From a virus (lineage: Duplodnaviria > Heunggongvirae > Uroviricota > Caudoviricetes), in the IMG/VR virus record IMGVR_UViG_2698536437_000018: a stretch of 4,582 nucleotides of DNA; one strand, given 5' to 3'. How positions within the stretch are numbered: position 1 is the first letter of the stretch; each line of letters starts with the position of its first letter. Of this stretch, positions 1 through 3,000 are shown in pieces. Position numbers: made by a program.

Positions 1-3000
1 TCCCTGCTGACGGTGAAATCCTTCAGCGAGGATGAACGGGTGATCACCGGGATTGCGTCAACGCCTTCTCCGGATCGGGATGGTGACATCCTGGAGCCGG
101 AGGGGGCGGAGTTTGGCTGTGCGATCCCGTTTCTCTGGCAGCATGACTATTCCCGTCCGGTGGGCCAGTGTACGGTACGCCGGGTCAGTGAAGGTCTGGA
201 AATCACGGCAACACTGGTGAAGCCCGTACCGGATATGCCGTCGCAGCTGGCTGCCCGGCTGGATGAAGCCTGGGCGGCCATTAAGACCGGGCTGGTCAGG
301 GGGCTTTCCGTGGGCTTCCGTCCCCATGAATACACCTTTCTGGACGGGGGCGGACTGCATTTTCTGCGCTGGGAACTGATGGAGGTATCTGCCGTCACCG
401 TACCCGCGAATGCGGAATGCACCATCCGGACCATTAAATCTTACGACCGCCCGTTTTCTGCACGGAAACCGGTGGTGAAAATCGCATCTTCTGCCGGCGC
501 TGCGGCACAGTCAATAACCTCTTTTCATAAGGAAAAGTCAGCAATGAATACTGGTGAACAGATTAAAAGTTTTGAAAACAAGCGTGCGGCGCTGGCAGCC
601 TCCCTTGAGGAGATCATGAACAAAGCCGCAGAGGAAGGCCGCACACTGGATGTGGAGGAGGAAGAGCATTACGACAACACCGCAGCGGAAATCCGTCAGG
701 TGGATGCGCACCTGAAGCGTCTGCGTGAACTGGAAACCAGTAAGGCCGCCACGGCACAGCCGGTGAAACAGGCCGGTAACGGGAATGTGGCCACGGTGGC
801 TTCAGCGCCGGTGATCCGTGTTGAGCAGAAACTGGAGAAGGGGATTGGTTTCGCACGTTTTGCCAAATCACTGGCCGCGGCTAAAGGTGTCCGCTCTGAA
901 GCCCTGGAAGTGGCCCGTCGTCAGTATCCGGATGACAGTCGTCTGCATCATGTCCTGAAATCGGCGGTGGGGGCAGGGACCACCACGGACCCACAGTGGG
1001 CAGGCAGCCTGTCTGAATATCAGGAATATGCGCAGGACTTTATTGATTACCTGCGTCCGCAGACCATTATCGGGCGATTTGGTCAGGGCGGGATCCCTGC
1101 ACTTCGTCAGGTGCCATTCAATATCCGTGTGCACGCCCAGGTGTCCGGCGGTGCTGCCGGCTGGGTGGGTGAGGGTAAGGCAAAACCCCTGACGAAGTTT
1201 GATTTTGAATCCATCACCTTCAGTCATGCGAAGGTGTCGGCCATTGCGGTACTGACGGAAGAATTGATCCGTTTTTCCAGTCCGGCTGCTGATGCACTGG
1301 TCCGTAATGCGCTGGCGGAAGCGGTGGTGGCGCGTCTGGACACAGACTTTGTGGACCCGAAAAAAGCTGCAGTGGCAGATGTCTCCCCGGCGTCCATCAC
1401 CCATGATGTGAAGGGCACGGCATCAACCGGTAACCCGGATGCGGATGCAGAGGCTGCGTTTGGACAGTTTGTGGCAGCAAACCTGCAGCCCACCGGTGCG
1501 GTCTGGCTGATGTCCAGCACCAATGCCCTGGCACTGTCCATGCGTAAAAATGCGCTGGGTCAGAAGGAATACCCGGACATGACCCTGCTGGGTGGCTCCT
1601 TCCAGGGGCTGCCGGTGATTGTCTCCCAGTACGTGGGTGACCAGCTGGTGCTGGTGAATGCCCCGGATATTTATCTGGCGGATGACGGCGGCGTGGCAGT
1701 GGATATGTCCCGCGAGGCATCACTGGAAATGCAGTCTGAGCCGACCGGCGACAGTACCACGCCGTCGCCGGTGGAGCTGGTTTCCATGTTCCAGACAGGC
1801 AGTGTGGCCATCCGTGCGGAGCGCTGGATCAACTGGCGTCGTCGCCGTACCGCGGCGGTGGCGGTGATCACCGGAGTGAACTACGGCAGTGCGTCCGGCG
1901 GCTGAGTCTGATAAGGAGGACGGGAGGCGTGCGCCTCCCGTAACAGGTTATGGCAAAGATCCGATATCTGCAGGGCACGCATGATGCCCGGGCCGGGGAT
2001 ATCCGTGATGTCGCACAGCCGTGTGCGGAGGTGCTGGTTCGCCTGAGGAAGGCGGAGTACATCACAGCGCGACGTCCGGCGGGTCAGAAAAAGAAACATG
2101 ATGCGGAGCATAGCGAATGTGGAACTTTTTGCGACGAACCCGAAAAAACCAGAAATCAGGACGTGATGTAAAAGAGGTGGGCTGGACCAGCCTGTTTCAG
2201 GCGGTGGCTGAGCCCTTTGCCGGCGCCTGGCAGCAGGGTGTGAAAGCCGATCCGGAAAGTGTCCTCTCCTTTCATGCGGTGTTTTCTTGCATTTCGCTGA
2301 TATCCCAGGATATCGCCAAAATGCGGCTGCGCCTGATGCAGACGGATACACAGGGGATCCGCCGTGAAAAACGGCAGGGGGATATTGCCCGTCTCTGTCG
2401 TCGTCCCAATGCACAGCAGAATCGTATCCAGTTTTTTGAACTGTGGCTGAACGCCAAACTGCGTCACGGCAATACGGTGGTGCTGAAAATCCGTAACTCC
2501 CGGGGGCAGATCAAAGAACTGCGTATTCTGGACTGGAGCCGGGTTGAACCTCTGGTGGCGGATGACGGCGAGGTGTTCTATCGCATCACGCCGGACCGGA
2601 ACTGCGGGATCACGGAGGCGGTGACGGTGCCTGCCCGGGAAGTGATCCACGACCGGTTTAACTGTTTTTTTCATCCGCTTGTGGGGCTGCCGCCGGTGTA
2701 TGCCGCCGGGCTGGCGGCCACGCAGGGGCATCATATTCAGGAAAATTCGACGTCTTTTTTCAGAAATGGCGGCAGGCCGTCCGGGGTGATTGAGATCCCC
2801 GGCAGTATTACGGAAGAAAATGCGAAAAAACTGAAGAGCAACTGGGACAGCGGGTATACAGGCGAAAATGCGGGGAAAACGGCCATTCTGAGCAACGGGG
2901 CAAAATACAACCCCACGACGTTTTCACCTGTGGATGCGCAGACGGTGGAACAACTGAAGATGACCGCTGAAATTGTCTGTTCGGTGTTCCGTGTCCCGGC

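Follow-up and report, generated by a model that had tools for sequence, protein, structure and literature searches.

A protease-scaffold-capsid fusion gene of lambdoid Escherichia coli prophages and its conserved putative internal translation start

In phage HK97, the prohead protease (gp4) and the major capsid protein (gp5) are encoded by two genes, and the protease is reportedly targeted non-covalently via its C-terminal region (Duda et al. 2013). In the nested genes of phage lambda (C/Nu3), herpes simplex virus 1 (HSV-1; UL26/UL26.5) and HFTV1 (gp17/gp17.5), an in-frame internal start is located after the protease domain, and the second product is a protease-less assembly protein which has its C-terminus in common with the full-length protease (bioRxiv 10.64898/2026.09.13.751334). 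Genes in which protease, scaffold and HK97-like capsid protein are fused are unusual but recurrent in actinobacteriophages (clusters EE, EL, AN, AX, FE, CW and DM), where the fusion has been linked to very small genomes of about 17 kb (PMC7302621). The present work deals with a fusion of these three functions in a stretch of 4,582 nucleotides (nt), called the window below, from a virus of the Caudoviricetes (IMG/VR record IMGVR_UViG_2698536437_000018). A single open reading frame (ORF) of its plus strand codes for a prohead protease, a scaffold-like segment and a major capsid protein, and a conserved sequence signature inside this ORF suggests that a shorter product, made of scaffold and capsid protein only, may be translated from the same gene.

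The window gene resembles HK97 gp4/gp5 in that its protease is of the S78 family, its capsid fold is the same and a scaffold at the N-terminus of the capsid protein would likewise be removed by the protease. However, protease and capsid protein are joined in one ORF, the protease is cut down to a 136-residue core on a disordered linker, the presumed pro-region is about 140-160 amino acids (aa) long as against 102 in HK97, and the gene order is permuted, the portal gene coming after the capsid gene. In lambda C/Nu3, UL26/UL26.5 and gp17/gp17.5, the part shared by the two products is the scaffold only and the capsid protein is encoded by a separate gene, whereas in the window gene the shared part would comprise both; moreover, two products have been demonstrated in these three systems, whereas in the window gene the second one is deduced from sequence comparison. 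The actinobacteriophage fusions differ from the window in their hosts and in genome size (about 17 kb against 50-60 kb for the window's prophage type), with no close sequence relationship. Finally, the 'tripartite capsid gene' of Gifsy-2, a lambdoid prophage of an enteric bacterium, is reported to combine in a single gene a protease, a middle part resembling a scaffold and a capsid protein of HK97 fold (Effantin et al., Virology 2010). The Gifsy-2 protease is reportedly ClpP-like and not S78, whereas that of the window is of the S78/assemblin type; the likeness would thus be one of architecture and not of protease homology.

Frame 1 of the window is open from nt 1 and is closed by a TGA codon at nt 1903-1905. 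The ORF listing of the window gives a 630-codon ORF at nt 13-1905 of the plus strand, and an earlier interpretation made without database searches (the sequence-only reading) had placed the gene start at nt 13. This start is an artefact of the window edge, the GTG at nt 13 being merely the first start codon within the window. In close relatives, the annotated coding sequence (CDS) starts at a GTG located 21 nt upstream of nt 1, behind a CAGGAGG sequence, and the fused gene is therefore cut at its 5' side by the left window edge. The CDS of E. coli O157:H7 493/89, 99.5% identical to the window gene, counts 1926 nt and 641 aa, and the true full-length protein is about 641 aa long. Residues are numbered here on the 634-aa translation of nt 1-1902, residue n corresponding to nt 3n-2 to 3n.

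As the sequence-only reading had claimed, protease and capsid domain are found in one stop-free ORF. The same protein matches the Pfam families Peptidase_S78 (PF04586; aa 38-141; 34.0 bits for a gathering cut-off of 21) and Phage_capsid (PF05065; aa 371-620; 53.1 bits for a gathering cut-off of 24.2), and it aligns end to end with PHROG 617, 'major head protein' (E 2e-253). No interruption was found in the protease-to-capsid stretch of the ORF. The gene and the elements on which the proposal of a second product is based are the following:

1-1905, plus strand: fused prohead protease / scaffold-like / major capsid ORF; 7 codons, with the GTG start, lie upstream of the window edge (open frame, starts of the relatives, Pfam, PHROG 617).
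529-534, plus strand: Shine-Dalgarno-like AAGGAA inside the ORF; core AAGGA at 529-533, 10 nt before the internal ATG; ΔG of -6.2 kcal/mol.
544-546, plus strand: conserved in-frame ATG (Met182), proposed internal start of a 453-aa, 48.3-kDa scaffold-capsid product.

The internal ATG coincides with the start of the scaffold domain, and in almost every homologue a Met is present 4-8 residues ahead of the conserved EQI motif which opens the first scaffold helix. When 75 sequences were aligned (74 relatives and the window), a start codon was found to be kept at the position of Met182 in 74 of them (69 ATG, 3 GTG and 2 TTG), despite the hypervariable linker around it; in the remaining locus, a Met is located farther upstream. 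In addition, the capsid gene of unfused relatives (P0245, P0263, L052, L064, L077, L078 and L080) begins at the Met182 position, and the N-terminus of the EcCI2 capsid protein also aligns in this region.

These data have to be weighed against the possibility that only the full-length polypeptide is made, every capsid subunit then carrying a self-excising protease. In that case, the internal ATG and its Shine-Dalgarno (SD) motif would be the relic of a two-gene arrangement, a by-product of linker composition or an SD-like pause aiding the folding of the protease. Such a view is in line with the continuity and conservation of the ORF and with the stronger SD found at the upstream start in the enteric clade, window included. 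It is also compatible with a rough estimate according to which the internal cargo of 415 subunits, at about 35 kDa, would take up no more than some 40% of the room in a T=7 procapsid. A relic, however, should decay at the 38-76% identity observed, whereas start codon, SD, spacing and open mRNA are all retained across the sampled divergence, and the only codons replacing ATG at Met182, GTG and TTG, are likewise start codons.

The pairing of the region with the anti-SD sequence bears directly on this question. For the 15 nt upstream of the internal start, the mean pairing energy across the family was -7.6 kcal/mol, as against a background in the same ORFs of -2.3 both at all other in-frame positions and at 996 other in-frame ATGs; the mean at the true starts of the same genes was -7.3 kcal/mol. 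Many relatives have a perfect AAGGAGGG ahead of the internal start. Position by position, the complementarity shows a sharp trough only at the correct register, and the remaining linker, with values near zero, is essentially devoid of anti-SD complementarity, a point against the single-product view. The distance from SD core to ATG lies between 5 and 10 nt in 59 of the 60 loci with a recognisable core.

Furthermore, the Gly codon which contributes to the SD is GGA in all 14 enteric relatives, although GGA accounts for 8% of the Gly codons elsewhere in the ORFs. Among 34 invariant Gly columns, a single codon is used across all 14 enteric relatives at only 2, one of them being the SD column; at the other 32 the synonymous sites are scrambled, a divergence at which a mere relic should have decayed. 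The SD motif also occurs in varying codon phases and in different amino acid contexts (KG, KE, QE, PKEG, QGA). From this sequence comparison, the motif appears to be maintained at the nucleotide and not at the protein level.

The folding of the messenger points in the same direction. In 74 of the 75 sequences, folding is weaker over the 50 nt around the internal ATG than over the remainder of the ORF (mean z of +1.77; 76% in the top decile). In the window, the site has a local GC content of 0.32 as compared to 0.60 and a ΔG of -6.9 as compared to a mean of -14.5 (top 3.5%), and it is the GC minimum of the gene. Finally, the internal SD is the stronger of the two in 34 of the 74 relatives, often in Alpha- and Gammaproteobacteria, which also speaks against a single product, whereas in enterics the upstream one is stronger. 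A ribosome-binding-site (RBS) sequence signature of putative function is thus present at the internal start, and the combined signals are the signatures of a predicted translation initiation region inside the ORF.

Several points weigh against this interpretation. In the window itself the SD, AAGGAA, is of moderate strength (-6.2 kcal/mol, within the top 11% of the ORF in which it lies) and its spacer of 10 nt is longish; the CAGGAGG at the upstream start of close relatives is stronger (-10.3 kcal/mol). A second, weaker anti-SD trough (mean of -4.9) is observed at about nt 640-660 (residues 210-214, AAEEGRTLD), some 100 nt past the ATG. The EEG motif, conserved at the protein level, accounts for this trough, and no start codon comes after it; it illustrates that SD-like runs can arise from protein constraint, as the single-product view holds. 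Low GC and weak folding could partly reflect the Lys/Asn-rich composition of the linker, the Met may be retained for a structural or cleavage reason, and the loci are phylogenetically related, so that the counts overstate their independence. The maturation site could not be located and the hhalign match to HK97 was weak (E 0.14). Lastly, the case for the second product is a wholly comparative one. Considering both sides, we regard the synthesis of the full-length polypeptide alone as a tenable but rather less probable explanation.

The reading which we prefer, with some reserve, is that the fused gene yields two nested, in-frame and co-terminal products. The first would be the full-length protein of about 641 aa (68.8 kDa), initiated at the GTG 21 nt left of the window, and the second the 453-aa, 48.3-kDa protein initiated at the ATG of nt 544-546 behind the AAGGAA of nt 529-534 and containing scaffold and capsid protein only. 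This second product would have the layout of HK97 gp5, i.e. a delta domain followed by the capsid protein. By analogy with HK97, lambda, the herpesviruses and HFTV1 gp17/gp17.5, both forms would co-assemble through their identical scaffold-capsid parts, and the protease would enter the procapsid as a covalently attached part of the full-length copies, so that no separate, non-covalent targeting peptide would be needed. The ratio of protease to capsid protein may then depend on how strong the two RBSs are relative to each other, and lineages appear to tune it differently, with the upstream site stronger in enterics and the internal one in many Alpha- and Gammaproteobacteria. Once the procapsid is assembled, the protease would cut linker and scaffold off all subunits, its own included, between residues of about 253 and 343.

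The sequence-only reading had concluded that all functions reside in one polypeptide. This holds for the ORF, which is single, but the further idea that every subunit carries a protease is called into question by the conserved SD and ATG of nt 529-546: with two nested products, only part of the capsid subunits would carry it. Lambda C/Nu3, which had been cited there as a contrasting case, is probably rather a parallel, the scaffold-capsid part being presumably translated alone as well. It seems somewhat likelier than otherwise that the principle of lambda C/Nu3 and herpes UL26/UL26.5 is extended here to a gene which also contains the capsid protein. No description of an internal start in a protease-capsid fusion was found in the literature searched or in the records. 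A proteomics paper on phages of enterohaemorrhagic E. coli gives peptide maps for podoviruses only (PMC12502783). A preprint on cyclic oligonucleotide-based antiphage signalling systems (CBASS) was set aside; it concerns a protease-scaffold fusion and not a capsid fusion.

The anatomy of the fused protein was derived from an AlphaFold2 (AF2) model of the full-length chain (28-sequence alignment; mean predicted local distance difference test score, pLDDT, of 74) and from a separate structure prediction in which window 1-420 was aligned to full-length database proteins. The modules are the following:

1-408, plus strand: prohead serine protease domain of S78 / assemblin fold, residues 1-136, beta-rich in the AF2 model.
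142-144, plus strand: codon of His48, putative catalytic histidine in the motif WQHD; His in 146 of 146 homologues.
307-309, plus strand: codon of Ser103, putative catalytic serine in the motif GLSVGF; Ser in 145 of 146 homologues.
409-543, plus strand: linker of 45 residues (137-181) with hypervariable sequence and length, disordered (residues 137-182 have a pLDDT below 50).
550-753, plus strand: helical hairpin, delta/scaffold-like, residues 184-211 and 218-251; AF2 pLDDT of about 80.
757-1014, plus strand: rest of the presumed pro-region, with residues 253-275 disordered, short helices over 282-316 and residues 318-338 disordered (AF2).
1015-1893, plus strand: HK97-fold major capsid core, residues about 339-631 (Pfam Phage_capsid, 53 bits; Foldseek).

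In the predicted structure, the protease domain has the fold of T4 gp21 and of the assemblins. Catalytic roles are attributed to His48 and Ser103 by virtue of S78 family membership; His48 is invariant across all five alignments made (A1-A5), and Glu128, found in 144 of the 146 homologues, is a candidate third catalytic residue. One may ask whether this domain is only an inactive remnant, serving as scaffold mass or as a targeting module, maturation being carried out by another protease or not at all. Nothing specific favours this idea, apart from the shortness of the domain (136 residues), which covers only positions 52-155 of the 165-position S78 profile. The retention of His48, Ser103 and Glu128 in 144-146 of the 146 homologues, the gp21/assemblin fold and the fact that annotated relatives have no further protease gene in the interval from terL to the tail genes all speak against it, and we hold it to be very improbable.

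The scaffold-like middle part put forward by the sequence-only reading corresponds to the helical hairpin of the AF2 model. With the family profile, this hairpin was aligned with residues 3-68 of 9gyi_B, the major head protein of EcCI2 (domain E 2e-5). These residues are the N-terminal scaffold domain of the stand-alone capsid protein of EcCI2, a capsid-forming phage-inducible chromosomal island (cf-PICI); the other profile matches were weak and concerned coiled-coil proteins. For the C-terminal capsid part, Foldseek searches against the PDB recovered the HK97 fold, with the Bxb1 major capsid protein (E 3e-14), D3 (2e-11), HK97 Head II (5e-11) and also R4C. The three modules (protease, scaffold-like and capsid) are thus real and lie in one ORF. 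In the linker, an in-frame deletion of 12 nt (4 aa, ASGN) is observed between nt 462 and 463 relative to most relatives, and it is common to the window and 493/89; it fits a linker acting as a length-tolerant tether.

As to the maturation cleavage, the alignments leave a candidate range of residues 253-343, in which residues 320-343 (about nt 952-1029) are expected to be the most likely. In the profile alignment, position 345, near residue 337, is matched by residue 3 of the modelled R4C capsid chain. In the weak hhalign comparison with HK97, whose sequence was checked against PDB entry 1ohg, mature residue 23 falls at about residue 365, which puts the mature N-terminus near residue 343. Lys320 is nearly invariant in the alignments, and Lys320|Ser321 had been considered as cleavage site from its likeness to the K103|S104 site of HK97; this candidate was dropped, as the weak hhalign match points nearer to residue 343. 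The mature capsid protein would have a mass of about 31-33 kDa after cleavage.

The whole window is 93-97% identical to Shiga toxin (Stx)-converting and related lambdoid phages (Sawaravirus, Pankowvirus, phage 2851, BP-4795), and the fused gene alone shows the same 93-97% nucleotide identity to phage records. The gene is that of BP-4795, 2851 and Stx2a_WGPS2 (PHROG 617), with matching length, domain order and neighbourhood; the differences are merely allelic, namely the 4-aa linker deletion and point substitutions. In these relatives, the order is terS, terL, fusion gene, a small PHROG-829 ORF, portal, Ad1 adaptor, head closure protein and tail genes. The fused gene is thus the head-morphogenesis gene of a long-tailed lambdoid E. 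coli prophage of the Stx-phage type. Its annotations vary between 'major head protein/prohead protease', 'phage prohead protease', 'major capsid protein' and 'capsid and scaffold'; the labels capsid, protease, and capsid and scaffold are each partly right. The gene itself is therefore already known and annotated, as the sequence-only reading had supposed of the architecture in general; with its published analogues, it is in this respect ordinary.

Beyond these close relatives, a word-indexed protein search returned more than 2600 matches, the best 120 of which are nearly all 644-648 aa long with both Pfam domains. HMMER searches against representatives of 50%-identity clusters gave 11960 matches at E<=1e-3 and 1162 at E<=1e-30; among the best 150, most align end to end with 38-54% identity. 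A homologue is also present in PAJU2 (48% identical). With an 8-sequence alignment as query, 80 genomic loci were retrieved from Gamma-, Alpha- and Betaproteobacteria and from some other phyla, and in about 72 of them one uninterrupted ORF extends over query residues 1-630 at 38-76% aa identity. There are few exceptions: at the junction of L052 and L064 an in-frame stop precedes an ATG, the two genes of L077, L078 and L080 are read in different frames, and L044 is a pseudogene. The fused head module is old and very widespread.

This distribution also decides whether the fusion is genuine. A stop codon or a frameshift might have been lost through a sequencing or assembly error, or by decay of a defective prophage; the adjoining portal gene is damaged, with frameshifts after nt 4296, so that the prophage may be defective, and the genes are separate in the few relatives just named (L052, L064, L077, L078, L080). 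Nevertheless, 94 phage records, 1249 complete E. coli genomes and about 72 distant loci all contain this ORF without interruption, and the catalytic residues and both domains are under clear purifying selection. An artefact or pseudogene is effectively refuted by this conservation, and we give it practically no credit. The sequence-only reading had also described the fusion as a minority arrangement. Although this remains correct for phages in general, the present family is very abundant: the gene occurs in 1252 of 5426 complete E. coli genomes, or 23% of them (in 1249 over at least 80% of its length), with up to 7 copies per genome, and it accounts for the 1162 cluster representatives mentioned above.

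Across Proteobacteria, the order terL, protease-capsid fusion, portal was observed in 74 of 82 loci (L001-L082). It is permuted with respect to HK97 and lambda, in which terL is followed by portal, protease and capsid; the conservation of this order indicates that the fusion and the permuted order go together in a single type of module.

Between the capsid and portal genes of the window, a 73-aa ORF (nt 1950-2171, plus strand) belongs to PHROG 829 (E 2e-37). It runs 55 nt past the annotated portal start in a different frame, is called 'hypothetical protein' in relatives and was matched in 18 of the 82 loci, almost exclusively enteric ones. Its product may be a small accessory protein of the head; alternatively, the portal start might be mis-set. 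The portal ORF (nt 2117-4300) contains a 162-nt (54-aa) tandem repeat of about 3.3 copies with 90% identity (nt 3704-4218), located in a C-terminal extension past the Pfam Phage_portal domain (aa 54-382). The number of copies varies among relatives, and one of the window copies is 6 aa shorter.

The same portal ORF ends early, at nt 4300, with 727 aa as compared to 859 in phage 2851 and 493/89. Relative to WGPS2, 2851 and 493/89, the window is without about 101 nt at about nt 4296, which leads to a frameshift; the frame is regained through an indel of 1 nt near nt 4480-4500. The C-terminus conserved in the portal (…DGVADIDVSMTGERLF…GGSLWHCNSMTGDKPGEAHSSGWTLAAKRGRDAGGGK and the stop) is thereby split over two frames and ends at the right window edge. 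In all eight best-matching complete E. coli genomes listed, the match is in two pieces spanning about 504 nt, so these genomes carry the extra stretch of about 101 nt. The window copy either belongs to a decaying prophage or contains an assembly error. Nothing of relevance emerged when the window was scanned for Rfam families, promoters and terminators. All the homology evidence obtained concerns the plus strand; the minus-strand ORFs overlapping the fused gene (e.g. 868-1404) were not searched for homology and were treated as chance products of a sequence of about 60% GC.

The fusion as such brings little novelty: roughly one in four complete E. coli genomes carries it, and it is paralleled in actinobacteriophages and, reportedly, in Gifsy-2. 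The conserved internal start, on the other hand, is undescribed for a capsid-containing gene as far as the literature was searched and, if true, would represent a new variant of the nested protease/scaffold genes. The outcome is a sharper, testable model of how protease-scaffold-capsid fusions work. Should translation also begin at the internal ATG, only a tunable minority (or majority) of the subunits would deliver the protease covalently, and the stoichiometry puzzle of one protease per capsid subunit would be removed. Use of the internal start would also explain the easy interconversion between fused and separate genes, which are one stop codon apart, and in thousands of prophages a major precursor protein of the virion would be overlooked systematically by annotation pipelines.

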